DNA of 64,000 nt from an uncultured Gammaproteobacteria bacterium (GTDB lineage Bacteria > Pseudomonadota > Gammaproteobacteria > Ga0077536), in the NCBI GenBank assembly GCA_942490995.1, contig CALOBG010000021.1, forward strand, positions 91,388 to 155,387, given 5' to 3'. How positions within the stretch are numbered: position 1 is the stretch's first letter; each line of letters begins with the position of its first letter. Positions 27,607 to 44,815 of this stretch are shown in pieces. The notes under the pieces were generated by a model. It worked only from the letters and a program-made list of their open reading frames with translations, was not told where the DNA came from and did no database searches. The position numbers and the translations under genes were made by a program.

Positions 27607-29208
27607 TTGAATCTCAGCATCCAACACGGCTTCGCAAGCTTGCGCCGGCACCCGTTCGTCGTACTCAGCGGCGAAGTGGCGTTGCTGTTGATCAGTTTTG
27701 TCGCTATCGAACGGATAATTTTCTACTTCGCGCGCCTGCCGCCAAGCGCCTACGGTGAAGCGCATCTGACCCTGGCCGTCCTTCGCCACGCCGACCCGCT
27801 GTTCGGCGCCGCGCTGATGCTCGCCTTCCTCGGCTGGATGCGCTACGGCGGCGCGCCGCGGCGCTGGACGACGATCGTCGGCGGCGCTCCGATCCGTGCC
27901 TGCGTCGTACTTATATGTGCGCTGTTGGCGTGGTCGCTGAGCACTTATGGGCATAACTATTTTTATGATCAGGCCTACGCCATCGATCGCGTATTGCTGC
28001 TCGCACTGGCGGCACTGGTAGCCTGGCGTCCAGGGTTTGTATTCCCGTTTCTGCTGCTGAGCGTTGCCATGCATTGGCAAATCATGCAGCCATCGCTGGG
28101 CAGCGGTTCGTATCTCAACCACACCCTGCAACTGGTGCACGTCGTTGCACTGTTTGGCGCCAGCCTGTTGATCTACCCGCTGCTCGAACGGCGCTACGCG
28201 GATCGGTTCTGGCTGTTTGTCTGTTGCCTGGTCGCGGCGGTTTACTGGGAACCCGGCATCAGCAAGGTGGGCATTGGCTGGCTCGACTATGCAGGCCTGC
28301 ACTTCATGCCGCTGGCGGCCTATGCGCATGGTTGGCGCAGCGCGCTGGCGCCCGAGGCGATCGTTGAATTCGCGAATCTGTTGACGGCGTTCGACACCCC
28401 CATGCGCATATTTGTCCTCGCCATCGAACTCGGCTGCATCGCCTTTCTTGCCCACCGTTTGTGGTCGATCGCACTGCTGGGCCTGGTCATGGTTTTCCAT
28501 CTCGGCGTTTTTGTCCTGTACGGCTACTTGTTCTGGACCTGGATCGCGCTCGACGCCATCCTCATCAGCGTACTCATAGCCGATCTAAGGGTCGCGCGCA
28601 TCGCCATCTACAGCCGAGGCCACCTGCTGCTGTCGATGCTCCTGATCGGCACTGCGGGGTATTGGTGTCAGCCGTCCAGTCTGGCCTGGTTCGATTCGCC
28701 ACTGAGCTATACCTTTCGCTATTTTGGGGTCGGCGACAGCGGTGTTGAATATGAAGTCCCGCCGCGCTTCTTCGCGCCCTACGGCGATGCCTTTACGATG
28801 GCGAACTTCTCCTACCTCATTAATGAGCACAAGGTTCTGGTCAGCCCTTACGGGATCGCCAACCGCGCGCGCATCGGCGGCCTGCTCGCGGCACGCGACG
28901 CCGCCGATATTTTCCGACTCGAGAACGAACTCGGCGCGAACCGCTATGATGCCGCACGCGCCGAACAATACTACGATTTCCTGACCCGCTACCTCGAGCA
29001 TTACAACCGTCGACAGCGGCACTTCGATGCGCAGCGTTACGCGCCGCCACCGCAGTTCTGGAACCACCCACGCGGCCGGGTCTACACCGGACAGGAGGCG
29101 CTGCGCGAGCTACAGGTGGTGGCGTACACCACCTTCTTTGACGGTCAGACCCTGAGCGTTATCCGGCGTTCGCCGCTGCGAACGCTGCAGCTTTCGCGCG
29201 CCCCGTAA
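27607..29208 (+). CDS. Polytopic integral membrane protein of unknown function (≥9 predicted TM segments plus a ~160-aa C-terminal soluble domain).
   Basis: Many hydrophobic helices (…FVFPFLLLSVAMHWQIM…, …LGLVMVFHLGVFVLYGYLFWTWIALDAILISVLIA…). Divergent from the C-T-TE gene, inside the NRPS island. No confident family match. Confidence 0.5.
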   Translation: MNLSIQHGFASLRRHPFVVLSGEVALLLISFVAIERIIFYFARLPPSAYGEAHLTLAVLRHADPLFGAALMLAFLGWMRYGGAPRRWTTIVGGAPIRACVVLICALLAWSLSTYGHNYFYDQAYAIDRVLLLALAALVAWRPGFVFPFLLLSVAMHWQIMQPSLGSGSYLNHTLQLVHVVALFGASLLIYPLLERRYADRFWLFVCCLVAAVYWEPGISKVGIGWLDYAGLHFMPLAAYAHGWRSALAPEAIVEFANLLTAFDTPMRIFVLAIELGCIAFLAHRLWSIALLGLVMVFHLGVFVLYGYLFWTWIALDAILISVLIADLRVARIAIYSRGHLLLSMLLIGTAGYWCQPSSLAWFDSPLSYTFRYFGVGDSGVEYEVPPRFFAPYGDAFTMANFSYLINEHKVLVSPYGIANRARIGGLLAARDAADIFRLENELGANRYDAARAEQYYDFLTRYLEHYNRRQRHFDAQRYAPPPQFWNHPRGRVYTGQEALRELQVVAYTTFFDGQTLSVIRRSPLRTLQLSRAP

Positions 29209-29247: not shown

Positions 29248-29925
29248 TCACGCACCGGGATCGCTTTCGAGACCGTCGAGCATTGCGGCGATCTCGCTGA
29301 TCTGGGATTCGTCGAGGTCGATCAGGGGTTCGTCGGCAGCAACGCTGTCGGGGCCCGCCTCGCTGGTGGCGGCGGCCTGTGCGGCGATAGTGGGGTGGTC
29401 AAAAAACTGCTCCGGCGACAATTTCAGGCCCTGCGACTGCGCGCGCGACAGGATACGAATGCTCAGCAGCGAGTCGCCGCCGAGTTCGAAAAAATTATCG
29501 TCGACACTGACCTCGTCGATGCCGAGCACATCGCACCAGATCTGTGCCAGCAGGCGTTCGGCGCGGGTGGTCGGCGCCGTACCTGTTTCGCTCACGTTCA
29601 CTTCAAGTGCGCCGGCCAGAGCCACTGCGGCGCGACGGTCGAGTTTACCGTTGGCCAGACGCGGCAGGGCGGTAACCGCGAGAAACTGGCGCGGCACCAT
29701 GTACTCGGGCAACCGCTCGGTGAGATGCGCGGTGAGTTCGCTCGCCTGCGGATGCCGCTCGGCGCGCGCGACGAAACACGCCACCAGCCGTGCGCTGTCC
29801 GGCGCCTGCGCAAGGGTGTGCTGCGTGATCAGTGCGCCGAGCAGACGCCTGCGTTCCGGCGCCAGCTGTCGCAGCCGCTCCGCCACACTTCGAGCAGAGC
29901 CCTTGCCGCTTGAGGTAACGCTCAT
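29248..29925 (-). CDS. NRPS fragment: C-terminal A-domain subdomain (motifs A9-A10) plus PCP.
   Basis: …LVACFVA…LPEYMVPRQFLAVTALPRLANGKLDR (A9/A10), then PCP FFELGGDSLLSI. Its ATG overlaps the stop of the upstream methyltransferase ORF (ATGA). Confidence 0.75.
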   Translation of the reverse strand: MSVTSSGKGSARSVAERLRQLAPERRRLLGALITQHTLAQAPDSARLVACFVARAERHPQASELTAHLTERLPEYMVPRQFLAVTALPRLANGKLDRRAAVALAGALEVNVSETGTAPTTRAERLLAQIWCDVLGIDEVSVDDNFFELGGDSLLSIRILSRAQSQGLKLSPEQFFDHPTIAAQAAATSEAGPDSVAADEPLIDLDESQISEIAAMLDGLESDPGA

Positions 29926-30713
29926 TTAATCGCCCTGACCACAACCATTGACCGCGCCCACCAGGCGTCCTGCACGTCCTGCGGAATATCCAGCGCGTCT
30001 ACCCGCGACAGGTGGATGGCGCTGAAATGTTCGAACAGCCGGCGCTGGTGACCGCGACTCAGCGAATCGATTTCGTTGGACAGATAGGTGAAGCTGCCGC
30101 CAGGATGCAGGTGGGCCGCGGCGTGGGCAAAAAAATGCTCGGCGAAAGTTGTACTGGCAGCGATCTGTTCGATGAACTCGTCTTCGTTCAAGGGGTAGGT
30201 GTGAAAAAAAATCCCATCGAATGCTCCCAATTGCGGCAGAACGTCCTGCCACATGCCGCCGAGCATCTCGATTGCTCGGTCAGGATAGCTATCGCGCCAG
30301 CGCTGAAATCGCCCGATGATATGCTCATTGCATTCGATAATCGTGTGGGTACTAACGCCGCAATCCTGGATCAGGGCCGAGGCAATCCCACGGCCGAAAC
30401 CGATTTCCAGGATATCGCCGTGACTGACCGTCACCGCGTCGGCCATCGCGCGCATCAACGGGATCTGCCAGTCTTCCATGATCTGCTCGTCGCTCAGTTC
30501 AGCCTGCGCGCGGTCCGCGGTGACCAGCTTATCGCTGCCGGCCACGAGCTCGCCCGCCGTGCGGTCCAGCGCGAGCAGGTTATCGGCCAATTCGCTGACC
30601 GCCCGGTTGAGCAGCCAGTTGCGCTGCGCGTCGCGTGGCGGACGGATAAAATCCTCGCGTTTGATCTCGAGGCTGATCGCAAAATCCCGCGTCTTTTTGT
30701 AGCGTCTGGTCAT
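29922..30713 (-). CDS. SAM-dependent methyltransferase of the guanidinoacetate N-methyltransferase (GAMT/RMT2-like) fold.
   Basis: QIPLMRAMADAVTVSHGDILEIGFGRGIAS…THTIIECNEHIIGRFQRW…MWQDVLPQLGAFDGIFFHTYPLNEDEF aligns closely with mammalian GAMT (…RVLEVGFGMAIAAS…HWIIECNDGVFQRL…[29 protein letters not shown]). ATGA overlaps at both ends. Confidence 0.8.
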   Translation of the reverse strand: MTRRYKKTRDFAISLEIKREDFIRPPRDAQRNWLLNRAVSELADNLLALDRTAGELVAGSDKLVTADRAQAELSDEQIMEDWQIPLMRAMADAVTVSHGDILEIGFGRGIASALIQDCGVSTHTIIECNEHIIGRFQRWRDSYPDRAIEMLGGMWQDVLPQLGAFDGIFFHTYPLNEDEFIEQIAASTTFAEHFFAHAAAHLHPGGSFTYLSNEIDSLSRGHQRRLFEHFSAIHLSRVDALDIPQDVQDAWWARSMVVVRAIK

Positions 30714-33577
30714 GTTTGCGCCCGGCTCGTCGAAGTCTGCTCGAATGCGCCAAGGTCACTGAGTGCGGCAGCCACTTCTATTTCGGTGAGTCCCTCAACC
30801 CGCTCCAGCAAGGCGGATACGATTTCATCTGGCAGCGCTGTCAGCGCGGTCTCCAGCTTTTCCATGTCGCCGTCCGTAATCGGGGCCAGACTTGCACGAT
30901 CGGCCACGAACACCATCGCTTCCGCGACGTCCGCGTGCTGCTGCAGCGCCGCTTCGACTTCTTCCGGTTCGATACGAAAGCCACGTACCTTGACCTGGTG
31001 GTCGATACGCCCAAGAAACTCGAAGCGGCCGTCGCGCAGTTGGCGAACCCGGTCGCCGGTCCGGTAGAGGCGCGGATCCGGCTCGGCTCGGAACGGATTG
31101 TCGATGAAGTTCTCAACATTGCGCGGGTCGTCGCCGACATAGCCGGCGGCGATGCACACGCCTCCTATCAGTAACTCGCCCTCGGCGCCGAGGGGCACCG
31201 GCCGTAGCTGCGCGTCGACGACGTAGGTGGAGACGTGGGGCAGCGGCCTGCCGATGGTGACGCGGGTAGCAGCGCCGTCGGCGGTGAGCTCCGCCATCGT
31301 TGCCCACACCGTCGCTTCGGTTGGCCCGTACTCGTTGTACAAAGCGGTGTTCGGCAGTTGCCGGCAGTGCTCGAGCTGCAGCCGCGCCGGACATGCCTCG
31401 CCCGCAACGATAACGCTACGCAGGTCCGGCAGCGCGACGCCGCCGAGCTGCTCGACAATGAGCGCGTGCAGGCTTGGCAGGCACAGCACATGGGTGATCC
31501 CCTCACTGGCGATGCGTGCAACCAGGCCGGCCATGTCCTGCTCGGCCCGCGCGCGCGGCAACACCAGGGTGCCACCGGTGGTCAGCGTCCAGAACAGACC
31601 GGCCACCGAGCTGTCCGTCGCCAATGACGACAAAAGTAGAAACCTGGCCGGATCATGACCATAAACCTGGCTACGCGCCGCTGTCGCAACCTGTAGCTGG
31701 CGGTGAGAAATCATCACCCCTTTGGCAGCGCCGGTGCTGCCCGAAGTGAACATCACGTAGGCCAGGGTGTCGGCGTCACTGGCCACCACGGCCGCCGCCG
31801 CGGCCGGCGAAGCAGGCGCTGTATCGGTGCACAGCGCCTGCCACGGTGGCGGTACATGCGCGGCTGCGACGGAGGTCGTCACGACCACGCCGGCCTGACC
31901 ATCCGCAGCGGCGAGCGTCGCCAGCAGGGCCGCGATGCGCGCTGGTGGGTGCGACGTATCCAGCGGTACGTAGGCGCCTCCGGCAAACAGGATCGCAAGG
32001 ATCGCAACAATCGCCTCGCTATCGCGCGCCATCAGCACCGGCACGCTGTTGCCTGCGGCGACGCCACGCTCGGCAAGCGTAGTGGCCAGCACCGCAGCGC
32101 GTTCGACAAGTTCCGCGTAGCTGAGCTCGCCGCGTTCGTCGCGCACGGCAATCGCCTGCGGTGTGCGCAAGGCTACCTCGACAATCCGCTCATGGATCCC
32201 GCCGCGAACCGAAGTCGATGCCGCGGGCGGCAACGCGGGCGCAAGCAGCCGCGCCTGTTCGTTGGGACTACACGGCGGCGCCTGCTTGAGTGGTTGCGCC
32301 ATGCCGGCGTTCATGAATGCCAACGTAGCGATGACGTGCTGCAGCAGCGACTCGACGAACTCGTCGCCGAACTTCGCGCGATCGTAGACCGCGATGAGTT
32401 CCAGTTCGGCCCCGGGCACGGCAAGCAGGGCAAAAGGATAGTGGCTGAATTCGCGGTAGTTTTCCTCGCTCGGCGCCAGTGCCGCCCCCCCGCCGTCGCC
32501 GGCGGCGGCAAAATTCTCGACCACCAGGATGGTGTCAAACAACGGTGTCCCCGGCGCCACCGCACTCCATTTCTGGATCTCGGCAAGCGGCGTCTGTTCA
32601 AATTGACGCGCCGCCAGGTGTGCTGCCTGGATCGCATGCAGGTAGTCACCCAGACTGGCCTGCGACGAGATGGCGATCCGTTGCGGCAAGGTGTTGATGA
32701 ACAGGCCGACGATCGATTCCGCGCCGTGCAGGTCGGCGGGGCGGCCGTGACTGGTCGTGCCGAAGACGACGTCGTCACTGCCGGCGTGGCGAGCGAGTAC
32801 CCACGCGTAGGCGCCGGCGAGCATGGTGTAAAAAGTCAGCCGTTGTTCGCGCGCCAGCCTCTGCAGGGCTTGCCATCGCTCGCCGTCGAGCACCTCGCAG
32901 CGTGTCGCCCCGGCGCCTGCCGGGCCCGCGCTCGTGGCCTCGGATCCGGCATCGACGAGCCGCGTAGGTGCTGCGAAACCATCCAGTGCCGAGCGCCAGT
33001 AGCTGTGCGCGGCCGTGTGATCCCGCTGCTCCAGCCAGCGCACGAATGTTTCAAAGGCCGGCGCCGCCGGCGCGCGCGCTGACGATCCATAAGCCGCGGC
33101 GAGCTCGTTCAGGACCAGGCGAGCCGACCAGCCGTCAACCACGAGGTGGTGGAAGCTCCATAGCATGCGCCACGAGTCCGCGCCGAGACGGAACAACGCA
33201 ACGCGCAGCAGCGGTGCCTGTTCGAGTACGAAACCGCGCGCCCGGTCAGCGTCGAGGAAAGCCGCGAAACGAGCGCTCTGGTCCGCGGCCGGCAGGTCGC
33301 TCCAGTCCTCATCGTGCCACGGCAGGTCGACCTGCCGGCGAACCAGCTGCAGGGGTTTTTGCCGTCCCTCCCAGCTGAACAGGGTACGCAGGGCATCGTG
33401 GCGCTGAACGATCCCGCACCAGGCTTCGCGCAGACGTTGCGGGTCGATAGCCTGCTCGTAACGACAACTGTACTGGTCGAAGTAGACGCGCTCATCGGGC
33501 CGGCGCAGGGTGTGGTAGAGGATCCCTTCCTGCATCGGGGTCAGGCGATAAATCGCCTTGATGTTGCTGTCTGCCAT
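30710..33577 (-). CDS. NRPS fragment: condensation domain + A-domain core (motifs A1-A8), ending just after A8.
   Basis: C: HHLVVDGWS. A: LAYVMFTSGSTGAAKG (A3), YNEYGPTEATV (A5), YRTGDRV (A7), GRIDHQVKVRGFRIEPEEVE (A8), then HADVAEAMVFV. The probable start is MADSNIK at 33577 (ORF-track Met at 33628). Confidence 0.8.
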   Translation of the reverse strand: MADSNIKAIYRLTPMQEGILYHTLRRPDERVYFDQYSCRYEQAIDPQRLREAWCGIVQRHDALRTLFSWEGRQKPLQLVRRQVDLPWHDEDWSDLPAADQSARFAAFLDADRARGFVLEQAPLLRVALFRLGADSWRMLWSFHHLVVDGWSARLVLNELAAAYGSSARAPAAPAFETFVRWLEQRDHTAAHSYWRSALDGFAAPTRLVDAGSEATSAGPAGAGATRCEVLDGERWQALQRLAREQRLTFYTMLAGAYAWVLARHAGSDDVVFGTTSHGRPADLHGAESIVGLFINTLPQRIAISSQASLGDYLHAIQAAHLAARQFEQTPLAEIQKWSAVAPGTPLFDTILVVENFAAAGDGGGAALAPSEENYREFSHYPFALLAVPGAELELIAVYDRAKFGDEFVESLLQHVIATLAFMNAGMAQPLKQAPPCSPNEQARLLAPALPPAASTSVRGGIHERIVEVALRTPQAIAVRDERGELSYAELVERAAVLATTLAERGVAAGNSVPVLMARDSEAIVAILAILFAGGAYVPLDTSHPPARIAALLATLAAADGQAGVVVTTSVAAAHVPPPWQALCTDTAPASPAAAAAVVASDADTLAYVMFTSGSTGAAKGVMISHRQLQVATAARSQVYGHDPARFLLLSSLATDSSVAGLFWTLTTGGTLVLPRARAEQDMAGLVARIASEGITHVLCLPSLHALIVEQLGGVALPDLRSVIVAGEACPARLQLEHCRQLPNTALYNEYGPTEATVWATMAELTADGAATRVTIGRPLPHVSTYVVDAQLRPVPLGAEGELLIGGVCIAAGYVGDDPRNVENFIDNPFRAEPDPRLYRTGDRVRQLRDGRFEFLGRIDHQVKVRGFRIEPEEVEAALQQHADVAEAMVFVADRASLAPITDGDMEKLETALTALPDEIVSALLERVEGLTEIEVAAALSDLGAFEQTSTSRAQT

Positions 33578-33590
33578 ATGCCCGGCGTCC

Positions 33591-36500
33591 CTACTCGCCA
33601 AACTCTGCGAGCACGCGGTCGAGTTCACCCTGGTCGACGTCGGCGGCAGGGAAATCCGAGGGCGTCAGGGCCGCGACGGCGCCGCTCGCGGCAAGCTCGA
33701 TGATGGCGCCCAGTTCGCCAATGACAGCGCCCGCGAGGTGCTGGATGGTCGAAGGCCGATAACAATCAGCAGCATAGGACCAGTCCAGCCGTAGTCGACC
33801 GTCAAAAATGTACGCATTGATTTCGAGCAGGTAGGGACGCGGTCCGGTAGCAGCCGTTACCGCGCGCAGCGGCCCCGACAGGCGCACACGCGCGTCACCG
33901 CGCGTAGCCCTGTCCCATTGGCCGAGATAATTGAACAATACCGGCGCAGAACCGGCACGCGAGACGCGCTCAGCGCCGTAATGAAGCAGGTTGTATCCGG
34001 CGCCGTGGGCGGGCACCGCACGCAGCTTTTCCTTGACCTGCCTGACGGTTTCAATCAGCGTCTCGCCGCTGCGACACTCAAACAACACCGGGTAGATGCT
34101 CGTGAACCAACCCACGGTGCGGGTCAGATCCATACCTTCGACCAGGGCTTCGCGGCCATGGCCTTCGAGGTCGAATTTCAGCAGCGACCCGCCGTGCCAG
34201 CGCGCCAGCACGCGAACCACGCCGGCAAGCAGGACTTCTGGCACCTGGACACGCCAGCTCGCCGGCACCTGATGGACCAATGCCGCGGTCTGTTCGCGAT
34301 CGAGCCTGCTCGTCAAGCGTGTACTGCTGGCATAGTCGTTCACGCTTTCGGGGTAATCGCAGCGCAGGGTCATGACACTGGCATCAATCTGTGCCCAGTA
34401 CTCCGCCTCGGCTGGCCCGGCGCTGCCCGCGTGCTGCGCCGCCAGCGCCAGCGCCCAATCCGCCACCGCGGTGGTTTTGCGCGGTAGCGTCACCGCCGCG
34501 TGGGCTGCCAGCTGCTGGCACGCTCGCTCGAGGTCATCAAGCAGTATCCACCATGACACGCCATCGATGAGCAGGTGGTGCACGGCAATTACCAGCAGAG
34601 AAGCCGGTTGATCGGCGCCGCGTGGCAGCCAGCGCAACTGCACCAGCGGACCGCGTTCGATATCCATCGTGCCGTTCATTGCGTCGATCAGGGCATCGAG
34701 ATCGCTGGCGCTTTCTTCTCCCGGTGCCGGGCCGGGTATCGGCGTCGCCGCGACGCTCGGCGGGTCTATACACTGCCGCCAACCGTTGGCCCTGCGCTCG
34801 AAACGACTGCGCAGGACATCATGATGGGCCACGACCTGCGCCCACGCCTGGGTCAGCACCGTAACCTCCAGACCCGCGTCGACTTCGACCACGGCAACCT
34901 GACTCAGCGCTGGCGGCGGGTCCTCAGCGAGTTCGAAAAAGCGCCGTTGCATCGGCAGCAGCTCAACCTCACCTTCGACAGGTCCCTGTGTTGCGGACGT
35001 CGTGGGAACGTCGCGGCATACCGCGGCCGCCGCGGCCACGGTCGGAAAGTCAAACAGATCCTGCGGCGTCAGTTCGAGGCCCGCGGCCCGGGCTCGCGCG
35101 ACAATCTGAATATTGAGAATCGAGTCGCCGCCGAGGTCAAAAAAATTGTCATTGATGCCGATGCGGGCAAGACCGAAAACTTCACACCAGATGCCGGCGA
35201 GCAGGTGTTCGTTACGGCTGACCGGCGCGACAAATTCTGTATCCAGACCGGTGCGGGCATACTGCGGCGCCGGCAGGCGTGCGCGATCGAGTTTGCCATT
35301 CCCGGTCAACGGCACGGCCTCCAGCCGTACGAAATGGCGCGGCAGGTATTCCGACGGCAATCGCGCGCCGAGGTGCTCCAGCAGGCGGCCGCGATCCAGC
35401 TCGTCATCGGCGACGTAATAAGCGATCAGCTCGATGTGCCGACGGGTCGCTGCGGACGCTTCTTGATGGTGGTAGCCGATAGACGCGAGTATGCGTCTGA
35501 CGTTTTCGATGTTGATATCGTCATCGAGTTCGGCGAGGGCGGCGTTGCGCTCCTTGTGGCCGAGCCTCACATCCCAGCTATAAGGCAAGGCGTAGTTGTG
35601 ATGCCGGCGCTCGGTTTTGTGTACGTGGATGCCGGCCTCATTGATCAGACAATTTGTCGAACGCCCGGTGTCCGCCGGACGGACCCAGGGCGCGCCGTGC
35701 TGCAGATAATCGAGCATGTCACCCAGGGTCGCGTCGCAGTAGCGGTAGAAATCGACAAACTTGATTTCCTCGAACACGCGATCGGATCGGAACAGCGAGA
35801 CGTCGAGCGCCGCGGATACCGCGTCGTGCATGCGATGATAAATCTTGCGTGCTTCGATGATATTGCGATCGATTTCAGCAGGATCGTAAATTTTCTGCCG
35901 AAACTGATCGGCGACCCGGGTCTCGAAGATCTGTCCGCGCGAAAGTCCGGTAAAGATGTGGCGTATGCCGCGTTCGTGAGCGAGATTCATCGACAGCGTG
36001 TATATGGTCTTGAAGCAGCCATTGCAGACATTGCTGTGACGCTTGAGGCTGTCGACGAAGATAGCGTCCATCGCGGGCGTGGTGGCACTGACCAGTTCGA
36101 GTCCGAGTTTATCGACCACCCGGCGGATGTTGTCTTTCGCCCCATCGGAGATGTAGCCGTTGTCGAGGGTAAAGACCAGCGGCGTCAGACCGAGATCGAC
36201 AAGCTGGCACAGCGCGTAGGTACTGTCCTTGCCGCCGCTCAACAGCATCATGCAGTCCGGCGTGCGCGGTGTCGCTGCCCGCACTTCGGCAACGATGTTC
36301 TCGAGGTCCTGCTGGTCGCCGAAATAGCGCATCGCCTGTTCGCGCTCGCGGGCGAAACGGCGGCAGATGCCACACACCCCGGCGCCGTCGAGATCGGCAT
36401 CGGGATGATTGGAGGCGAGACCGCAATGCACGCAGTACTCGATTTCCTGCGCCCGTGCTTCGCGGTCGTCGGCAATCACCACCGCTTCACGCAGCCCCGG

Positions 36501-39134
36501 ATAAGCGGCGAGGACGCTTTCGATTTCGCCCAGCTCGATCCTGATCCCGTTGACCTTGACCTGTTGATCGATGCGTCCAAGATATTCGAGCCGGCCGTCG
36601 GCGTTCCATCGAGCCAGGTCGCCGCTGAGATACATACGCCCACCACGATTGAACGGATCGTCAACGAAGCGGGCCGCGGTTTCCTCATCGCGGCCGAGAT
36701 AACCCAACGCGACCCCGGCGCCGCCTATCGCGATTTCGCCAGCGACACCGCGCGGCTGCAGACCAAGCCTGCTGTCCAGAACGTAGATTGTCGCGCCGTC
36801 AATCGGGCGGCCTATCGGTACCGAGATATCCGTATCGGCATGCGGGTCGAAACGATGGATCATGCATCCGACGGTCGCCTCGGTCGGCCCGTACTCGTTG
36901 TAGATCTCAATCTCGTCGTTGAAATATTTCGAAACCGTACGCGCAACATCGGTTTTCAGGTCGTCGCCGCCGAGGATCATGACCCGCAGCCGCGAATGAG
37001 TCAGATCCATCGCTTGCAACAGCGCCAGGTGCGCGGGCGTAAGCTTGATGATATCGGCGCGGTTGTCCTCGATCACCCGTCGTAAGACGATGTCGCGGCC
37101 GCCCTCGAGTTCCGGGTAGACCAGTACCCGCCCGCCGCTCAGCAACGGCAGGAAACACGTCGTTACCGTCAGATCGAAAGCCATGGCCGTGAACAGGGGA
37201 AAGGTCAGCTGCGCGCCGCGCACATACTGACGCTCCGCCCAGTCGAGATAATTGACAACATTGGCGTGGGTCACGGCAACGCCTTTCGGAGCACCGCTCG
37301 ACCCCGAAGTGTAGATGACGTAGACACGATCGTTGGCCGTTACTACAGGCGCCGGATTGCTATCGGGACGCCCCGCCGCGGCGCGCGCGAAATCCGCGTA
37401 GACCTCGGTCGCCCAGCGTTCGTCACGCGGCTGGCCCGCGGCGGAATCGACCAGCCACAGTCGCGCGCCGGCGTCCGCAACGCAGTGCGCGCGACGCGCG
37501 CCGGGATCGTTCGTGGACAGCGGCAGGTACGCCGCACCGCATTTGATCACCGCTAGCATTGCGATCACTGCCTCGGCAGAGCGGCGCATGCCAAGCGCAA
37601 CCACGTCGCCCGCGCCGATGCCGCGCGCACGCAATTCGTGCGCGAGACGGTTGGCGTCGCTGTTCAAGCTGCCGTAGTTCCATACCACGCCGTCACATTC
37701 GAGCGCCGGCAAATCACGATGGCGCGCTGCACAGTGCTCGAAACGCGCGCCCAGGGTCAGCGTCCGATCTGCGGAGGTCTGGATCCGCCCTCGCGCGACG
37801 GAGAGCAGGGCGCGGCGGGCCGCGGCGTCAAGGAGATTTACGGCGGTTATCGAACCTTCAGGTTGGTCAACAAATGCGTCAATGATGGCGAGCAGGTGCC
37901 GCCGCGCGGCATCCGCGTCATCGACACTGAAGCTGTCCTCGTTGAGATCGAGAAACAGCCCGAAAACGTCGGCCTGGTCGAAATCGTGCACCTGCAGACG
38001 CAACACGTGGTTGCGATCGCCATAGCCCGCATGCACCCACTCGGCGGTGGTCGGATGCGCATCGAACTCGCCGAACTCGGCGGTGATGTAATTCAGTACC
38101 ACGTTAATGCCGCGGACCTGGTCAAAACCGCTTGCGCCGGGCTGCGCGTTGAGCAGGAATGCCCGTGCCTCGCGCGCGACCTGCTGGTACACGCTCGCGA
38201 ATGTGTCGTCGGCGCTGAGGGTGAGCGTCAACGGGAAGATTTCGATGAACAGGCCAGCGGTCTGCTTGAACGACTTGCTCGATCGATTGTGCGCCGGCGT
38301 GCCGATCACCACCTCACCAACGCCGGTGATCCGGTACAGGTAGACCGCGAGCGCGGTAAAAAAAATCTGAAAGCGCGCCAGGTCGCTGTTGAAGGCGCGA
38401 AACGCCGGCGCTTCGGCGAGCGCTCGAATCGCTCGCGAGCGGTCTGCACCAAGCGCTACCGCGTAGCGCCGGGTACGGCCGCTGCGGGTCGGCGCCGGGC
38501 GCCGATAAAACTGCGGCACCGGACCGCTCAGATCGCCCTTGGCGCGCCAGTATTCGCGCGCGCGCCGGCACGCCCGCGAGTCCTGGTGACGTCGTTCGTA
38601 CTCGACATAGTCGCGGTAGGGAGGCAGCGCAGGCGTCGGCGTTTCGAGGCCGGACCTGGCGGCCTGATACAGCGCGCTCATATGGCGGAAAATCACCGAT
38701 ACCGACCAGGCATCGGTGACGACGTGGTGTTGGTTGAAATACCACACCGATTCCTGCGCGGAAAGGTACAACAGTGCGGTATCGAACAGGCGACGCGCGT
38801 AGTCGAACGGGCGCCGCGCGCGGGCCTCCAGCCATGCGGCCAGGGCCTCGCGCGGATCACGGCGGCTGGAGAAGTCGACGGTTTCGAGGGCGAAATCCAT
38901 CGTTTCGAGGACGCGCTGGCGCGACTCCCCGGCGTCTTCGTCGATGACCGTACGCATCGCACCGCAGCCCTGCAGCAGGGCGCGAAACGCCCGCTCGAAG
39001 GCATCGGCGTCAAGCGCCGTACCGATATGAAAGGCAAGCACCATGTTGTACAGCGGGTCGTCAGGCTGCAGTCGCTGCCCGGTCCAGATCAGTTCCTGCG
39101 CTCGAGTCAGCCGCATGGACGCTTGATCTTCCAT
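33591..39134 (-). CDS. NRPS: C - A - PCP - C, with the A domain interrupted between A8 and A9 by a ~340-aa TtcA/TtuA-like PP-loop domain.
   Basis: C1 HHVVTDAWS; A3 YTSGSSGAPKG; A4 FDLT; A5 YNEYGPTEATV; A8 GRIDQQVKVNGIRIELGEIE; insertion aa ~899-1237; A9/A10 LPSEYLP…NGKLDR; PCP FFDLGGDSIL; C2 HHLLIDGVSW. 1847 aa. Confidence 0.9.
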   Translation of the reverse strand: MEDQASMRLTRAQELIWTGQRLQPDDPLYNMVLAFHIGTALDADAFERAFRALLQGCGAMRTVIDEDAGESRQRVLETMDFALETVDFSSRRDPREALAAWLEARARRPFDYARRLFDTALLYLSAQESVWYFNQHHVVTDAWSVSVIFRHMSALYQAARSGLETPTPALPPYRDYVEYERRHQDSRACRRAREYWRAKGDLSGPVPQFYRRPAPTRSGRTRRYAVALGADRSRAIRALAEAPAFRAFNSDLARFQIFFTALAVYLYRITGVGEVVIGTPAHNRSSKSFKQTAGLFIEIFPLTLTLSADDTFASVYQQVAREARAFLLNAQPGASGFDQVRGINVVLNYITAEFGEFDAHPTTAEWVHAGYGDRNHVLRLQVHDFDQADVFGLFLDLNEDSFSVDDADAARRHLLAIIDAFVDQPEGSITAVNLLDAAARRALLSVARGRIQTSADRTLTLGARFEHCAARHRDLPALECDGVVWNYGSLNSDANRLAHELRARGIGAGDVVALGMRRSAEAVIAMLAVIKCGAAYLPLSTNDPGARRAHCVADAGARLWLVDSAAGQPRDERWATEVYADFARAAAGRPDSNPAPVVTANDRVYVIYTSGSSGAPKGVAVTHANVVNYLDWAERQYVRGAQLTFPLFTAMAFDLTVTTCFLPLLSGGRVLVYPELEGGRDIVLRRVIEDNRADIIKLTPAHLALLQAMDLTHSRLRVMILGGDDLKTDVARTVSKYFNDEIEIYNEYGPTEATVGCMIHRFDPHADTDISVPIGRPIDGATIYVLDSRLGLQPRGVAGEIAIGGAGVALGYLGRDEETAARFVDDPFNRGGRMYLSGDLARWNADGRLEYLGRIDQQVKVNGIRIELGEIESVLAAYPGLREAVVIADDREARAQEIEYCVHCGLASNHPDADLDGAGVCGICRRFAREREQAMRYFGDQQDLENIVAEVRAATPRTPDCMMLLSGGKDSTYALCQLVDLGLTPLVFTLDNGYISDGAKDNIRRVVDKLGLELVSATTPAMDAIFVDSLKRHSNVCNGCFKTIYTLSMNLAHERGIRHIFTGLSRGQIFETRVADQFRQKIYDPAEIDRNIIEARKIYHRMHDAVSAALDVSLFRSDRVFEEIKFVDFYRYCDATLGDMLDYLQHGAPWVRPADTGRSTNCLINEAGIHVHKTERRHHNYALPYSWDVRLGHKERNAALAELDDDINIENVRRILASIGYHHQEASAATRRHIELIAYYVADDELDRGRLLEHLGARLPSEYLPRHFVRLEAVPLTGNGKLDRARLPAPQYARTGLDTEFVAPVSRNEHLLAGIWCEVFGLARIGINDNFFDLGGDSILNIQIVARARAAGLELTPQDLFDFPTVAAAAAVCRDVPTTSATQGPVEGEVELLPMQRRFFELAEDPPPALSQVAVVEVDAGLEVTVLTQAWAQVVAHHDVLRSRFERRANGWRQCIDPPSVAATPIPGPAPGEESASDLDALIDAMNGTMDIERGPLVQLRWLPRGADQPASLLVIAVHHLLIDGVSWWILLDDLERACQQLAAHAAVTLPRKTTAVADWALALAAQHAGSAGPAEAEYWAQIDASVMTLRCDYPESVNDYASSTRLTSRLDREQTAALVHQVPASWRVQVPEVLLAGVVRVLARWHGGSLLKFDLEGHGREALVEGMDLTRTVGWFTSIYPVLFECRSGETLIETVRQVKEKLRAVPAHGAGYNLLHYGAERVSRAGSAPVLFNYLGQWDRATRGDARVRLSGPLRAVTAATGPRPYLLEINAYIFDGRLRLDWSYAADCYRPSTIQHLAGAVIGELGAIIELAASGAVAALTPSDFPAADVDQGELDRVLAEFGE
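35430..36440 (-). other. Embedded PP-loop ATP pyrophosphatase (adenine-nucleotide alpha-hydrolase) domain of the TtcA/TtuA/Ncs6 type inside the NRPS A domain.
   Basis: CxxC-x16-CxxC (CVHCG…CGIC, aa 901-924), P-loop SGGKDS (aa 966-971; nt 36222-36239 verified), CNGC (aa 1037/1040) and a distal Cys1133 at TtuA-like spacings. Confidence 0.6.
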
Positions 39135-39140
39135 GTCCGT

Positions 39141-39383
39141 CTAGTCGTGGCTGCGCTGCGCGACGTAGGCGGCGATGGTGTTGATCGAACGGAAGTACTC
39201 GATACTGAAATCCTGTGGCGGGATCTCGAACCCGTAGGTCTCCTCGAGGTAACCGACCAGGCGCACCATACCGAGCGAATCGACCACCCCGTCATTGAGC
39301 AGCATATCGTCGTCGCCGACCACGTGCGGACCTTCGAGCAGCTCGTCGTGGATAAAAGCAGCGATGGTGTCCCTGATATTCAC
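39141..39383 (-). CDS. Stand-alone peptidyl/acyl carrier protein.
   Basis: 80 aa, phosphopantetheine-attachment serine in …DGVVDSLGMVRLV…. Sits 13 nt downstream of the stand-alone A domain. Confidence 0.75.
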   Translation of the reverse strand: MNIRDTIAAFIHDELLEGPHVVGDDDMLLNDGVVDSLGMVRLVGYLEETYGFEIPPQDFSIEYFRSINTIAAYVAQRSHD

Positions 39384-39396
39384 GCTCGCTCCTCGC

Positions 39397-40980
39397 TCAG
39401 ACGCGGTTGGTGGTTGTGGACGAATACGCTTCGCGCAGCGCGCGGCGGTCGATTTTACCGCTGGAGGTGCGCGGAAACACCTTGCGCAGCTCGATGGAAC
39501 TCGGCACGGAATACCACGGCAGCGCGCGTTTCAGTTCGCTGGTCAGATCGCCGCTATCGACCCCGGCGTCGCCTTTGAGCGTTACGGCGGCGTGGATCTC
39601 ACCGCCGCCATCGGCGTCGCTTACGACAAAAACGCCAGCCTCTTCGACCACCGCGATGGCGCTCAAGGCGGCCTCGATTTCGTCAAGTTCCACTCGATAA
39701 CCACGCACCTTGACCTGGCGATCCTTGCGCCCGAGAAACCATAGCAGACCGCTGTGATCCTCACGCACCACATCACCGGTGCGATAAAACACTTCCTCGT
39801 GCCCGGCAATGCGCTCGCGACGATAAAACGCGCGTTCATTGAGTTCGGGTCGGCCCCAGTAGCCGCGCATCATGGTCGGTGAACGCACCAGCAGTTCGCC
39901 GTCGACCCCCGGCGGTACCTCGCGGTCCTGCTCATCGACGATCAGGGCCTCAGCGGTGTCGGCAATCGGGCCAATCGGGATGCTGTCCGCGTCCATGGCC
40001 AGATCACGAACCGTGTAATGGGTCACGCCATTGACTTCCGCCGGGCCGTAGATGTTGTCAAAGCTGACCCACGGCAGAACCTCACGTAATGCGCGCAGGT
40101 GTTTGAGCGGCATCGGTTCGCCACCGAATATCGCCCAGCGCAGCGCGCTCAGATCACGTTGTTCCAGCGCACCGCGCAGGAGCAACTGGATCAGCGCGAA
40201 CGGCACGGTATACAGCACCGTAATGCCCTGATCCTGGATCAGCTGTGAATAGCTCGCCGGCAAACGCGTGTAAGCCTCGGGAACAATCGCCGTCGCGCAG
40301 CCTGCCAGTGCGGCCGAAAAAAAATCCATGATCGAGAGATCGAAATGCAGCGGCGCGTGGTTGCTGAGCACGTCCTCGGCGTGGAACCGATACTCGTGCG
40401 CAGCCCAGCGTGCGAAACTCAGGCCGCTGGCATGGGTGTGCATCATACCCTTGGGCGCACCGGTCGAACCGGAGGTATACATGATGTAAGCGAGGTCCTG
40501 CTCGATAATTTTGCGCCGTGGCGGCGCGGCAGTCAGCGCGCCGCGAACTTCGCTCGGCGTGTAGTTACGCAAACCCTCGCCCGTCGCAGCGGCCAATCCG
40601 ACGGTCGCCTCGAGTGCGCATCCTTGAGCGATCTGGGCCAGCCTGCTTGCTTTGTGTTCCCCTGTAACGACGCAACGCATGCCACAGCTGCGCGCGATTT
40701 CGGCGCTGCGGGCCGGCGGCGCGGCCGGGTCGAGTGGCACGTATGCTGCGCCCGCCTTCATGATCCCGTACAGGGCGACCGCCGTGTCGATGCATTTGTC
40801 CATGTAAATGCCGACCGGTTCGCCGCGCGTCACACCGGCATCGACGAGGATATGGGCGAGCGCATTGGATCGCGCGGCCAGGTCACCGTAGCTCAGGGAT
40901 TGCTCGAGAAACTTGATCGCCGGTCGTTCGGGGGTGCGTTCCGCGACGTAATCTGGGGCATGGTAAATAAGCGTTATCAT
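39397..40980 (-). CDS. Stand-alone NRPS-type adenylation enzyme (amino-acid-AMP ligase) that loads the adjacent carrier protein.
   Basis: A1 LSYGDL, A2 LKAGAAYVPLD, A3 YIMYTSGSTGAPKG, A4 FDLS (Asp235 present), A5 NIYGPAE, A7 YRTGDV, A8 GRKDRQVKVRGYRVELDEIE, A10 SSGKIDR. Confidence 0.85.
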   Translation of the reverse strand: MITLIYHAPDYVAERTPERPAIKFLEQSLSYGDLAARSNALAHILVDAGVTRGEPVGIYMDKCIDTAVALYGIMKAGAAYVPLDPAAPPARSAEIARSCGMRCVVTGEHKASRLAQIAQGCALEATVGLAAATGEGLRNYTPSEVRGALTAAPPRRKIIEQDLAYIMYTSGSTGAPKGMMHTHASGLSFARWAAHEYRFHAEDVLSNHAPLHFDLSIMDFFSAALAGCATAIVPEAYTRLPASYSQLIQDQGITVLYTVPFALIQLLLRGALEQRDLSALRWAIFGGEPMPLKHLRALREVLPWVSFDNIYGPAEVNGVTHYTVRDLAMDADSIPIGPIADTAEALIVDEQDREVPPGVDGELLVRSPTMMRGYWGRPELNERAFYRRERIAGHEEVFYRTGDVVREDHSGLLWFLGRKDRQVKVRGYRVELDEIEAALSAIAVVEEAGVFVVSDADGGGEIHAAVTLKGDAGVDSGDLTSELKRALPWYSVPSSIELRKVFPRTSSGKIDRRALREAYSSTTTNRV

Positions 40981-41006
40981 GATCGTCGTCTGTCCGCCGC
41001 CGGTTT

Positions 41007-42155
41007 CTACAACCCGAGCATGCGGGCGACGATATTGCGCTGGATATCGGAGGTTCCGGCGTAGATCAAGCCGCCAACCGCGTCGCGCAAATCGCGTTCG
41101 ATGCCGGCCTCGCTGACATAACCCTCGCCGCCGTGGACGCGGATTGCATCGAGACTCGACTGGGTAAAACTTTCGCTGATATGCAGCTTGAGCAGGGCCG
41201 CCTCCGCGATCGCGCTGCGCCCGGACATTTTGAGCCAGGCGACTTTGTACAACAGCAGCCTAGCGGTTTCGAGGCGCAACTTCATATCAACGATACGGTT
41301 GGATACGGACTGAAATTTACCGATGGCCTGACCAAACTGGTGGCGCTTGCGTGCGTACGCGATAGTTTCGTCGAGCTGTCTGGCCATCGCGCCCAGTTGG
41401 CTGGCAAGGATGCTGCATCGCTCCCATTCCAGGAACCCGTTCGAAAGGCTGACACCGGCCCCCTCCGCCCCGAGCCGTTGCGCGACCGGCACCAGGCAGT
41501 CTTCGAATATCAATTCGCCGAACGGCACACTACGCAGGCCCATCTTCTCGCGATTGACGCCGACCCGGCAGCCGGCGGACGCAGTTTCGACCAGGAACGC
41601 ACTGATCCCCCATTTGCCAACCGACGGATCGGTACTCGCGAAAACCAACGCGACGTCTGCCACCGGGCCAAGTGAGACATAGCGCTTTTTGCCGTTCAGG
41701 ACATAGCCGCCGTCACATGCTGTCGCGCGGGTCGCCAGGCTGAACACGTCGGAGCCGGTGTCATCTTCGGTAATGGCATGGCAACCGATCATGTCACCGG
41801 CGGCGAGTGGCGGAAGAAAGCGCGCTTTCAACGCTTCGCTGCCGGCCTGCACGATGGGCAGTTGTACCGTCCACATCTGCGCATTAAGGGCAAACGCCAG
41901 ACCGTTGTCACGGCAGCCATAGCCGAAACCTTCCATGGCCAGGATTGCGGTTAGAAAATCGGTGTCCGGAAATCCACTATAGGCTGTCGGTAACGACATG
42001 GCCTGGATGCCGAACTCGGCGCAGGCGCGCCATTTTTCCTGCGGAAAGCGACTCAGGTGATCGTCGACGTCGACTTCGTGCGTGAGCCTGGTCGCGGCGA
42101 ATTGTTGCACCGCCGCCTGGCGCGCGAGTTGGGCTTCGGTCCAGTTGAAATCCAT
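41007..42155 (-). CDS. Acyl-CoA dehydrogenase-family FAD enzyme (PltE/RedW-like acyl- or aminoacyl-S-carrier-protein dehydrogenase).
   Basis: 382 aa with the ACAD three-domain fold (…GKKRYVSLGPVADVALVFA…; C-terminal …IYAGTSDIQRNIVARMLGL). Directly upstream of the stand-alone A and PCP genes. Confidence 0.8.
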   Translation of the reverse strand: MDFNWTEAQLARQAAVQQFAATRLTHEVDVDDHLSRFPQEKWRACAEFGIQAMSLPTAYSGFPDTDFLTAILAMEGFGYGCRDNGLAFALNAQMWTVQLPIVQAGSEALKARFLPPLAAGDMIGCHAITEDDTGSDVFSLATRATACDGGYVLNGKKRYVSLGPVADVALVFASTDPSVGKWGISAFLVETASAGCRVGVNREKMGLRSVPFGELIFEDCLVPVAQRLGAEGAGVSLSNGFLEWERCSILASQLGAMARQLDETIAYARKRHQFGQAIGKFQSVSNRIVDMKLRLETARLLLYKVAWLKMSGRSAIAEAALLKLHISESFTQSSLDAIRVHGGEGYVSEAGIERDLRDAVGGLIYAGTSDIQRNIVARMLGL

Positions 42156-42164
42156 GGCGGCGCG

Positions 42165-43472
42165 CTAGCCGAACAGCACAAGCAGGCGTTGCAGCAGCGC
42201 GCCAGCCGGCAGGTTGATTTCGAATGCGCGTTCTACGAACCAATAGACGGCAATGACGATCAGGACAACAGCGCCGCCCGGCACCACGACCTTCAGGTAC
42301 AGATCGCTGGCCCGGATCAAGTAAATCACAGGAAAGACGGCCGCAACGATGGCCAGCTGGCCGAGCTCGACGCCGAGATTGAATCCCAGCAGGGAGTGTA
42401 CGAGGTAGCCGGCCGGAATGCCGATCTCGGACAACACGCTGGCGAAACCGAAGCCGTGGAACAACCCGAACACGAATACTACCCAGCCGATGCGGCCATG
42501 GAAGATGGGCACCAGCAGGTCGAACGCCGCGATGGCGATCGACGCCGCGATCACCGATTCGACGAATCGCGATGATAGTTCGACCGTGCCCAGGGTGGCG
42601 TAGCTGAGCGTGATGGTATGCGCGACGGTAAACAGGGTCACGATTTTGATCAGGTAGATCAGCGCCGGCCGCGCCGATGGCAGCGCTCGCCAATGACTCG
42701 AGGATCGCTGCAGTACGCCGGGCAACAGCAGCGCGACGAGGAAAAGAATGTGATCGATCCCGATCCAGATGTGGTGCGTGCCAAGCGAAACCATGGCCAC
42801 GAAACCGCGCCACGTCGACCCCTGGGATAAATCCAGCGTCTGCGTGGTCGCGTTCGGTGCGAAAACCAGCGCGATATTGGTTTCATTGTCAAACGTACCG
42901 GTCTGCCAATTGCGCTCAATCACCAGCAGACCGCGATGCTGCGGTTGTTCGTCAAACAGCACTTCGTAGCGCACATCGATCGCAGCAGGCGGCCGTGGCT
43001 GGTTGGGAAGTGCGAATTCGAGCACGACGTACTGCGCTTCGGTGGTCGGGAGGAACCGAATCGGCCCGAATTCAAGTGTTGCCGTGCGTCCTTCAAGCGC
43101 AAACGCAACGCGCTCACGATAGTAGGCATGAATGGCGGCAGTATGCGCTGCAAGATTATCGCCCGTGGCGCTGCCGTCAGTGGGCAGTCCAAGATCCAGC
43201 GCGAGGTTCAGATCGGCCGTGGTGATTTCCAGGCGGCCGCCGACGCGTTCGCCATCGAGCTGCAGGAACAGGTAACTCTGGCCGAGCTTATGGGCGTGGG
43301 CGACACCGATGCTGCCGAACAGCACAGCGGTCACGATCAATAACCACGGCGCGCGCAGCGGGTTGGGCCTCGGCGGTCGGGAAACTGGACGCGGGTTCAA
43401 GATAATTTCAGCGTACCTTGTGAGTTGCGGGTAAGACCGCCCGCCGCCGGCAGGTTCCGGTGTAGACGACAT
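42165..43472 (-). CDS. HupE/UreJ_2-family membrane protein (putative Ni/Co-type metal permease) with an N-terminal periplasmic domain; the start is uncertain.
   Basis: Motif LGTHHIWIGIDHILFLVALLLPG and the downstream His/Gly-rich TM helix FGLFHGFGFASVL. First gene of the co-oriented NRPS operon. Start set at ATG 43472. Confidence 0.55.
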   Translation of the reverse strand: MSSTPEPAGGGRSYPQLTRYAEIILNPRPVSRPPRPNPLRAPWLLIVTAVLFGSIGVAHAHKLGQSYLFLQLDGERVGGRLEITTADLNLALDLGLPTDGSATGDNLAAHTAAIHAYYRERVAFALEGRTATLEFGPIRFLPTTEAQYVVLEFALPNQPRPPAAIDVRYEVLFDEQPQHRGLLVIERNWQTGTFDNETNIALVFAPNATTQTLDLSQGSTWRGFVAMVSLGTHHIWIGIDHILFLVALLLPGVLQRSSSHWRALPSARPALIYLIKIVTLFTVAHTITLSYATLGTVELSSRFVESVIAASIAIAAFDLLVPIFHGRIGWVVFVFGLFHGFGFASVLSEIGIPAGYLVHSLLGFNLGVELGQLAIVAAVFPVIYLIRASDLYLKVVVPGGAVVLIVIAVYWFVERAFEINLPAGALLQRLLVLFG

Positions 43473-43681
43473 ACTAGTGTAGCAGCGGCTTTCCGTGCGC
43501 GACCGGTGCTGCCACGGTAAATTTGTGTGAACTTTCCCATAATTACCCGTCAGACATTGCGATCGCGGCGCAACGATGACATCGTGACGCGTGCGCTGGC
43601 AGCCGGGATCGACGACAACGGCGAACCACATACGGGCGCGCGGACACTCAACACAATGTATCCACGAAATCCGGCATCGTC

Positions 43682-44779
43682 ATGCAGTCTCTGATCCTGA
43701 GCGCGAAGGACCTCGCGACGCTCGTGCGTCGGGTCGGACTCGATACCTTGTTCGACGACGTTGTAAGTGCCCTGCACGACGCGTGTAGTTCATTTACGCC
43801 GGAACGATACACGGTAGCGGTGCGCGAAGGGTTTTATTACCGCGAACCGGAAGTCGGGTTACTCGAATGGATGCCGACCCTGGAAGCCGGGCGCAGCGCG
43901 ACGCTCAAGGTCGTCAGTTACCACCCGCACAACGCGCAAAGCCATGGCCTGCCGACTATCCTTTCGACCTTGCTTGCGTTTGACCCACGCAGTGGACACC
44001 TGTGTGGACTGGTTGACGGCACCTTCGCCACGGCGTTGCGTACGGCGGCAGCGTCGGTGGTGGCAAGCCGGATCCTCGCCCCGCCGGACGCGCGCAGCAT
44101 CGGGTTCATTGGCTGCGGTGCACAGGCGCTTGCCCATCTGCATGGCCTGCGGCGCAGCTTCGACCTCGACACCGTGTACCTGTTCGATACCGAGCCGACC
44201 ACCAGCGCCAGTTTCGCCGCCCGTGCTCGCGGTCTGGGTCTCGATGGACTCAGCTTTGTGCCGGTCAGTGCGGCACAGGTACTGGCGGCGGCGGACATTC
44301 TTGTCACCGCTACCTCTGTCGCAATCGATGCCGAGCCCGTGGTCAGCGATGGCGTGCATCGCGGATCCCTGCATATCAATGCCGTGGGGTCTGATTTTCC
44401 GGGTAAGTGCGAGCTGCCATTGAGCCTGCTGAAGCGCGCGTTGGTGTGTCCGGACGTAGTTGAGCAGGCGCAAAAAGAAGGCGAATGCCAGCGACTGACG
44501 AACGCCGAAATCGGCCCCGACCTGGTGCAGTTGGTGCAGTCGGCCGACCGTTACCGCGATGCCCGCAGCCGCTTGACGGTATTCGACTCCACCGGTTGGG
44601 GCCTGGAAGACCACGTTACGCTCAAGATACTGCTCGCGTATGCCGGCGAACTCGGCATCGGCACACCGACCACGATCGAAACAAGCGCTGCCGATCCGCG
44701 CAACCCGTATTGCTTTGTCCACGACGCCAACGCAGCGATCATCCCGGACGCCCGCCTGCGGGCCATCGACGCCGGCTAG
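43682..44779 (+). CDS. Ornithine cyclodeaminase / mu-crystallin-family protein.
   Basis: 365 aa with an OCD-like Rossmann region (…IGFIGCGAQALAHL…) and family-typical N-terminus. Divergent from the NRPS operon. Confidence 0.75.
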   Translation: MQSLILSAKDLATLVRRVGLDTLFDDVVSALHDACSSFTPERYTVAVREGFYYREPEVGLLEWMPTLEAGRSATLKVVSYHPHNAQSHGLPTILSTLLAFDPRSGHLCGLVDGTFATALRTAAASVVASRILAPPDARSIGFIGCGAQALAHLHGLRRSFDLDTVYLFDTEPTTSASFAARARGLGLDGLSFVPVSAAQVLAAADILVTATSVAIDAEPVVSDGVHRGSLHINAVGSDFPGKCELPLSLLKRALVCPDVVEQAQKEGECQRLTNAEIGPDLVQLVQSADRYRDARSRLTVFDSTGWGLEDHVTLKILLAYAGELGIGTPTTIETSAADPRNPYCFVHDANAAIIPDARLRAIDAG

Positions 44780-44815
44780 CCGGACACGCTGGCGCGGGAC
44801 ACGGCGGCGGCCATA

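Follow-up and report, generated by a model that had tools for sequence, protein, structure and literature searches.

A predicted AMDH domain within the asparagine-type adenylation domain of a nonribosomal peptide synthetase from a widespread orphan gene cluster

AMDH domains and the interrupted adenylation domain of NRPS1

The aminomutase/amide dehydratase (AMDH) domain was described by Gross et al. (Nat Commun 2021; PMC7966384) in CysH, which belongs to the cystobactamid pathway of Cystobacter velatus, and in the homologue AlbIV, from the albicidin pathway of Xanthomonas albilineans. The domain has a mass of 38 kDa and a conserved SGGKD motif, sits in asparagine-specific adenylation (A) domains, and has many orphan homologues (PMC7966384). 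Here we describe a relative of this domain in a 64,000-nucleotide stretch of DNA, referred to as the window, from an uncultured member of the Gammaproteobacteria (lineage Ga0077536; assembly GCA_942490995.1, contig CALOBG010000021.1, positions 91,388 to 155,387). The GC content is 63%. The relative is an insert within the A domain of a nonribosomal peptide synthetase (NRPS), called NRPS1 below. By analogy with CysH, it probably dehydrates carrier-bound asparagine to a nitrile, within a module that would be fed by a pyrrole starter.

In vitro, the AMDH domain of CysH converts L-Asn bound to a thiolation (T) domain into beta-cyano-L-alanine, with a mass change of -18 Da, and this activity is lost when AMDH is deleted (PMC7966384). 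In vivo, all isoasparagine and cyanoalanine linkers need AMDH. Isoasparagine is still made when the hydroxylase CysJ is absent, and the nitrile then dominates in CysH; isoasparagine formation has so far not been found for AlbIV (PMC7966384). The same authors called the mechanism unknown; crystallisation failed, and a modelling template was lacking at that time. Purified CysH is reported to be dark brown, a color for which they considered only the radical S-adenosylmethionine motif CxxCxxxC, and no sulfur-containing product was reported for cystobactamids or albicidin (PMC7966384).

NRPS1 is encoded by a reverse-strand open reading frame (ORF; 33591-39134, 1847 aa), and all of its features noted below lie on that strand. 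Pfam detects two Condensation domains, AMP-binding at aa 465-813, AMP-binding_C at aa 1236-1281 and PP-binding at aa 1312-1371. A condensation (C) domain is followed by the A-domain core (motifs A1-A8; aa 465-888, 36471-37742), the AMDH insert (aa 889-1234, 346 aa; 35433-36470), the remainder of the A domain with motifs A9 and A10 (35280-35432), the T or carrier domain with its GGDS attachment site (35022-35201) and an epimerization (E) domain (33690-34976). The last of these is the second Condensation match (aa 1387-1815). All seven epimerization core motifs can be read in its translation, including HHLLIDGVSW, EGHGRE, RTVGWFTSIYP and FNYLGQ, so NRPS1 is read as a C-A-T-E protein; the typing uses the Marahiel core-motif definitions.

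The A8 motif is found at approximately aa 865-885 (GRIDQQVKVNGIRIELGEIE...REAVVIA), and the A domain resumes at ELIAYYVA and continues through LPSEYLP and NGKLDR, which leaves approximately 350 residues between A8 and A9/A10. When a profile of the family is compared with LgrA, its first 43 or so positions align with A8 and its last 160 or so with A9/A10 and the T domain, and roughly 340 positions in the middle are unmatched. This flank alignment, together with the split between AMP-binding and AMP-binding_C, places the interruption directly behind A8. An earlier note on this DNA had proposed exactly such an interruption, between A8 and A9, by a PP-loop (AANH) domain with an N-terminal zinc ribbon, and the Pfam split and LgrA alignment bear it out. 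It had placed the insert at 35430-36440; the location was right, but the extent was about 30 nucleotides too short at the upstream (N-terminal) end. The motifs that it listed are all present. The zinc-ribbon tetracysteine CVHC-x16-CGIC (C901, C904, C921, C924) lies at 36363-36434, and the PP-loop SGGKDS, an ATP pyrophosphatase motif that corresponds to AMDH "core region 1", is at aa 966-971 (36222-36239). The CNGC motif with C1037 and C1040 (36015-36026) is a candidate ligand pair for an iron-sulfur cluster or another metal, and the single distal cysteine, C1162 (35649-35651), occurs within DTGRSTNCLIN.

Over 329 aa, the insert is 53% identical to the AMDH domain of CysH, taken from the Source Data of Gross et al. 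(PMC7966384), with 71% positives (E=4e-135), and seven of seven cysteines are kept, C1162 among them. Every long conserved block is also common to the two: NVCNGCFKTIYT, GLSxGQxFETR, FVDFYRY, DTGRSTNCL and PYSWDVRxGH. A hidden Markov model built solely from relatives of the window's insert gives CysH 510 bits, compared with 543 bits for the insert itself. Like NRPS1, both CysH and AlbIV carry a domain of about 340 aa within an asparagine-specific A domain, and their host A domains have the same code-region motifs, FDLTVT, KLTP and YNEYGPTE (PMC7966384, Source Data). Pricia antarctica and Confluentibacter sp. 3B, the source organisms of two related loci collected here (L072 and L071, respectively), also appear in the list of 25 homologues given by Gross et al.

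Because of the 53% identity to CysH, the shared architecture, the asparagine code and the A8/A9 insertion site, the insert is assigned by sequence to the already characterised AMDH family, and hence is not a new type of NRPS domain. The earlier note knew of no PP-loop insert in an A domain, a view that the published AMDH domains of CysH and AlbIV overturn (PMC7966384). Its proposal of a thioamide-installing module also lost ground, since the characterised homologue dehydrates the asparagine amide to a nitrile or isomerises the residue to isoasparagine. Literature searches on interrupted A domains with a PP-loop, on thio-asparagine or thioamidation domains, and on later work on the AMDH mechanism returned nothing relevant, and a 2020 catalogue of interrupted A domains lists only methyltransferase inserts.

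The specificity code of the host A domain, read by alignment to GrsA, is DLTKIGEVG, compared with the Stachelhaus code DLTKLGEVGK for asparagine. This full code agrees with the Asp/Asn-like start D-L-T reported earlier for this domain. At code position 331, a script reads C and manual reading of YGPTEATVG gives G, which leaves the asparagine call unaffected. The pattern DLTK[IV]GE[VI]x is found in 73 of the 73 related loci with a scorable code. The host A domain is thus predicted to be specific for L-Asn.

Relation to other PP-loop families and the conserved cysteines

The best NCBIfam match of the insert is TIGR03573 (WbuX), a model for the N-acetyl sugar amidotransferases (NASAT). The match has E=3.7e-27 and reaches 95.6 bits, where the cutoff is 203.2, and it covers model positions 2-203 of 344, so only the first 200 or so residues. 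LarE and QueC matches are marginal in NCBIfam, and Pfam gives a sub-threshold QueC match only. The earlier note had expected ATP_bind_3 or TtcA/TtuA models to win such a search, and neither ATP_bind_3 nor any other TtcA/TtuA-type profile in Pfam or NCBIfam matches the insert at E<=10. A search of the PDB with the single insert sequence gives a marginal match to the NASAT structure 8WEX (E=0.044). For profile searches of the PDB, the alignment was trimmed of its NRPS flanks, which otherwise dominated through LgrA.

The tetracysteine of the insert followed by SGGKDS fits the NASAT signature, CxxC-Xn-[GN]xCxxC plus SGGxDS. That signature and its zinc site were described with 8WEX, and only the four zinc cysteines were given as conserved in the family (PMC10607449). 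The lysine of SGGKDS had been taken as a mark of TtcA, TtuA and Ncs6, yet 8WEX has SGGKDS as well. The predicted structure of the insert is confident and compact, with the same overall fold as NASAT, and its nearest structural neighbor is not a TtuA-type enzyme. The family closest to AMDH, as judged by profile and fold comparison, is therefore NASAT and not TtuA. The two nevertheless differ: NASAT (WbuX/WbpG, TIGR03573, 8WEX) is approximately 15% identical to the insert and works as a free enzyme on the N-acetyl groups of sugars, and the LpNASAT-type fragments (at most 142 aa) retrieved with an 81-aa 8WEX query lack a CxxC within about 80 residues past the PP-loop, unlike AMDH.

This relationship brings up NASAT-like amidotransfer, in which ammonia, or an amine within the same molecule, would attack the adenylated asparagine carboxamide and an amidine would form, much as NASAT converts acetamido to acetamidino groups. 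The reading is highly improbable for NRPS1, despite the closeness of NASAT by profile and fold. The match is far under the TIGR03573 cutoff and limited to the first part of the insert, no glutaminase partner (HisH/HisF-like) is seen among the conserved neighbors, and the characterised homologue yields a nitrile (PMC7966384). Imidazoline formation, an idea inspired by NASAT, and a beta-lactam-type cyclisation were also considered and were dropped, given the asparagine code and the AMDH identity.

The sulfur-inserting PP-loop enzymes are more distant in structure. In comparisons with TtuA/TtcA/NcsA and LarE (5MKO, 6SCY, 8CNZ), only a core of approximately 170-190 residues superposes on the insert; the insert has no C-terminal zinc finger, and these enzymes act on nucleotide substrates to give sulfur-carrying products. 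A search with the trimmed family profile finds MmLarE-[4Fe-4S] (8CNZ; E=1.7e-7) and places the CxGC of the family on the CxxC of LarE. Together, SGGxDS and a CXXC-C motif define the [4Fe-4S] type of LarE (PMC9283937).

CtaC, the carrier-dependent thioamide synthetase of closthioamide biosynthesis, is like AMDH an AANH enzyme that has thioester-tethered substrates, a predicted zinc site, a PP-loop and a CxxC...C pattern (PMC6772006). Its PP-loop is at residues 73-78 and its cysteines are C154, C157 and C284, compared with 78-83 and 149, 152 and 274 in the numbering of the insert, a comparison of motif patterns only (PMC6772006). The corresponding spacings are closely similar, at 76 and 127 residues in CtaC and 66 and 122 in the AMDH insert. 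Unlike the NRPS1 insert, CtaC is a stand-alone protein, has a demonstrated [4Fe-4S] cluster and places sulfur into backbone amides (PMC6772006).

A triad of cysteines, C1037, C1040 and C1162, is invariant in 120 of 120 homologues, as the earlier note would have it. The zinc-ribbon cysteines are near-invariant, from 61 of 62 to 84 of 84 among the homologues that cover the region, and the S, G, K, D and S of the PP-loop are invariant in the family. An alignment of 57 sequences from many phyla has 58 invariant columns, among them the whole PP-loop and the seven cysteines. This conservation and the confident, compact model speak against the view that the insert has degenerated or serves only as structure, without any part in catalysis; that reading has no direct evidence in its favor, was considered since the inserts of interrupted A domains are sometimes inactive, and is hardly credible. 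An iron-sulfur or other metal cofactor is plausible in AMDH, because the triad is invariant, the CxxC aligns with that of LarE, and CysH is brown. The triad may thus hold a [4Fe-4S] cluster, or a different metal, to aid the reaction.

The same features could be taken to fit an iron-sulfur PP-loop enzyme that inserts sulfur in the manner of TtuA, TtcA and CtaC, and which would convert an amide of the tethered residue to a thioamide, as thio-asparagine or in the backbone. The invariant CxxC...C triad, a PP-loop spacing resembling that of CtaC (itself with a zinc site and carrier-bound substrates), the LarE alignment and the brown CysH are in keeping with such an enzyme. So is the co-conservation of a HupE/UreJ-like transporter and TonB receptors, which would suit a soft-metal chelator. 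However, the known products of characterised homologues are sulfur-free and the conserved neighbors include no genes for sulfur mobilisation, and we regard sulfur insertion as very unlikely. With nothing specific to favor it, thioamide formation in the orphan clade of the window is unlikely too.

Proposed chemistry of the AMDH module

In the proposed pathway, the host A domain would activate L-Asn and load it onto the T domain. AMDH, as a PP-loop ATP pyrophosphatase of the NASAT fold, would then activate the oxygen of the side-chain carboxamide, presumably by adenylation, a step suggested by the relationship to NASAT and other PP-loop enzymes. Elimination of AMP and water would give T-bound beta-cyano-L-alanine. 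The upstream C domain would acylate this residue, probably with a pyrrole-2-carboxyl starter that is made by the neighboring set of A enzyme, peptidyl carrier protein (PCP), PigA-like dehydrogenase and ornithine cyclodeaminase. Finally, the E domain would epimerise the residue, followed by transfer to NRPS2, and the product residue is most likely beta-cyano-D-alanine.

Within this scheme, both the adenylation chemistry and the choice of nitrile over isoasparagine are proposals. The nitrile is favored because an E domain after the T domain needs an alpha-carbon adjoining the thioester. It is also favored because CysH makes predominantly nitrile in the absence of CysJ and a scan of ORFs in or near the cluster turned up no hydroxylase gene. 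The sole gene of the Fe/2-oxoglutarate type that was seen is a PhyH-family member 25 kb off.

The most serious alternative is that AMDH acts here as an aminomutase. T-bound asparagine would become isoasparagine, the residue of the main cystobactamids, with the thioester formed through the former side-chain carbonyl and the alpha-carboxamide left free. The insert is 53% identical to a domain that is needed in vivo for all isoasparagine linkers, and that makes isoasparagine even without CysJ (PMC7966384). In isoasparagine, however, the alpha-carbon beside the thioester on which the E domain acts is absent. In addition, AlbIV was not found to yield isoasparagine (PMC7966384), and the ORFs that were scanned in the cluster and near it include no CysJ-, CysQ- or CysB-like genes. 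An aminomutase role in NRPS1 is consequently judged unlikely.

Several points weigh against nitrile formation as the preferred reading. The function is carried over from a 53%-identical homologue with a stand-alone A-AMDH-T organisation to an in-line C-A-T-E protein. Because the CysH domain is bifunctional, isoasparagine or unmodified asparagine is a possible outcome. The AMDH mechanism was called unknown (PMC7966384), and adenylation of the amide is a proposal. A TtuA-like cluster on the cysteine triad would leave sulfur chemistry possible. Lastly, the pyrrole starter is inferred, since the neighboring dehydrogenase matches PigA and RedW at scores under the NCBIfam equivalog cutoffs.

Perhaps AMDH is a [4Fe-4S] PP-loop enzyme in which the C1037/C1040/C1162 triad holds a cluster like that of TtuA, LarE or CtaC, and a cluster-bound sulfide attacks the adenylated asparagine carboxamide to give thio-asparagine. 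This product could be transient, with loss of H2S leaving the nitrile and sulfide in a catalytic role, or it could be retained for metal binding in the orphan clade of the window, whose surroundings are rich in transporters and resemble those of metallophores. The idea is speculative and rather improbable, and if true it would account for the brown color of CysH and for the AMDH mechanism, and would rescue the thioamide proposal in a modified form.

The orphan gene cluster and its distribution

In contrast to the in-line C-A-T-E arrangement of NRPS1, the A-AMDH-T proteins CysH and AlbIV stand alone, and the shuttle CysB connects them to a para-aminobenzoate assembly line. Their partners are a hydroxylase and an O-methyltransferase, whereas NRPS1 is in an orphan cluster, at about 23.5-45.6 kb of the window, with a pyrrole-type starter cassette and a HupE-like transporter. 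Immediately upstream of NRPS1 and on the same strand are genes for a stand-alone carrier protein of 80 aa with the motif GVVDSLG (39141-39383; NCBIfam ACP/PCP models) and a stand-alone A enzyme predicted to load the starter amino acid (39397-40980; Pfam AMP-binding plus AMP-binding_C, and TIGR01733 above cutoff). The same strand also encodes a PigA/RedW-like L-prolyl-PCP dehydrogenase (41007-42155; NCBIfam PigA 5.9e-117 and RedW 7.5e-106, each below its equivalog cutoff) and a HupE/UreJ_2-family membrane protein (42165-43679; Pfam PF13795, 1e-41). An ornithine cyclodeaminase family protein is encoded on the forward strand (43580-44779; Pfam OCD_Mu_crystall 1.4e-54, NCBIfam ornithine cyclodeaminase 1.2e-51) and is a probable source of proline, from which the dehydrogenase set may make the pyrrole-2-carboxyl starter.

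In the next NRPS module, the A domain is split at the same A8/A9 junction. Three reverse-strand ORFs whose stop and start codons overlap encode, in order, C-A(A1-A8) (30710-33628), a guanidinoacetate-N-methyltransferase-like protein (29922-30713) and A9/A10 with a T domain (29248-29925). The methyltransferase matches PDB 1XCJ (E=6e-24) and has no Pfam match above cutoff. In effect, the interrupted A domain of this module is encoded as separate polypeptides; locus L002 has this layout too, and the methyltransferase occurs in six loci. A polytopic membrane protein of 533 aa is encoded on the opposite strand inside the NRPS cluster (27607-29208, forward) and has no Pfam or NCBIfam match; homologues of about 557 aa are present in nine loci, including L002 and L004. 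The terminal NRPS protein (25033-27477, reverse) is C-T-thioesterase and has no A domain. A FadD-like acyl-CoA ligase gene (23505-25004, forward) is divergent from it and adjoins it, and the ligase may load its T domain in trans. The flanks at 17319-23357 and 46131-50814 contain genes for flavin monooxygenase-like, luciferase-like monooxygenase and acyl-CoA-dehydrogenase-like proteins, a TetR regulator and an M48 peptidase, for which tailoring or unrelated catabolic roles are possible.

Relatives of the insert are widespread. Representatives of 560 clusters at 50% identity match it at E<=1e-30, and species-representative genomes carry relatives at 349 or more places; because of these numbers, the interruption is not a chance event. 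The cluster representatives are mostly about 1400 aa (C-A*-T, the asterisk marking the interrupted A domain) or about 1860 aa (C-A*-T-E/C) long, with the insert at approximately aa 890-1240. These full-length NRPS hosts came from the cluster-representative search, and a homologue search with the 346-aa insert as query listed proteins of at most 606 aa. The relatives are from Gammaproteobacteria, Burkholderiaceae, Alphaproteobacteria, Bacteroidota, Cyanobacteria and Chloroflexota, as well as Acidobacteriota, Gemmatimonadota, Planctomycetota, Actinomycetota and others, and the cluster family is present in at least 12 phyla. Identity between the related genome loci and the window is at most 68%.

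The conserved neighborhood was analysed by clustering ORFs across 80 loci plus the window. In this set, a homologue of the stand-alone A enzyme is present in 57 loci, the HupE/UreJ_2 membrane protein in 34 and an acyl-CoA-dehydrogenase-family protein in 33. The ornithine cyclodeaminase gene is at the same position in many loci, and a TonB-dependent receptor occurs in Bacteroidota loci. The starter cassette is located next to AMDH modules across phyla, at 39141-45577 in the window and at loci L002, L007, L015, L028, L029, L033 and others, and also at L041, L053, L058 and L079. This arrangement suggests an orphan family of small metabolites that combine a pyrrole with a modified asparagine. Because transporters of the HupE/UreJ-like and TonB receptor types occur in this context, a metal-related function is suggested, and the metabolites are possibly metallophores.

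The novelty of the insert as a domain type is gone, given that AMDH was named and characterised in 2021 by authors who had already noted its orphan homologues. What the window offers instead is an AMDH domain in line, as C-A-AMDH-T-E, within a widely spread family of compact orphan clusters. The available evidence points to the production by this family of small pyrrole/cyanoalanine (or isoasparagine) metabolites of unknown class, possibly metal-related. For the AMDH mechanism, the comparisons provide a framework that comprises a NASAT fold, a zinc ribbon and a PP-loop. It also includes the invariant CxxC...C triad, which corresponds to the LarE/TtuA-type iron-sulfur site and is in keeping with the brown color of CysH. 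Enzymatic conversion of an amide to a nitrile on a carrier protein is of interest to those who engineer nitrile warheads into peptides.

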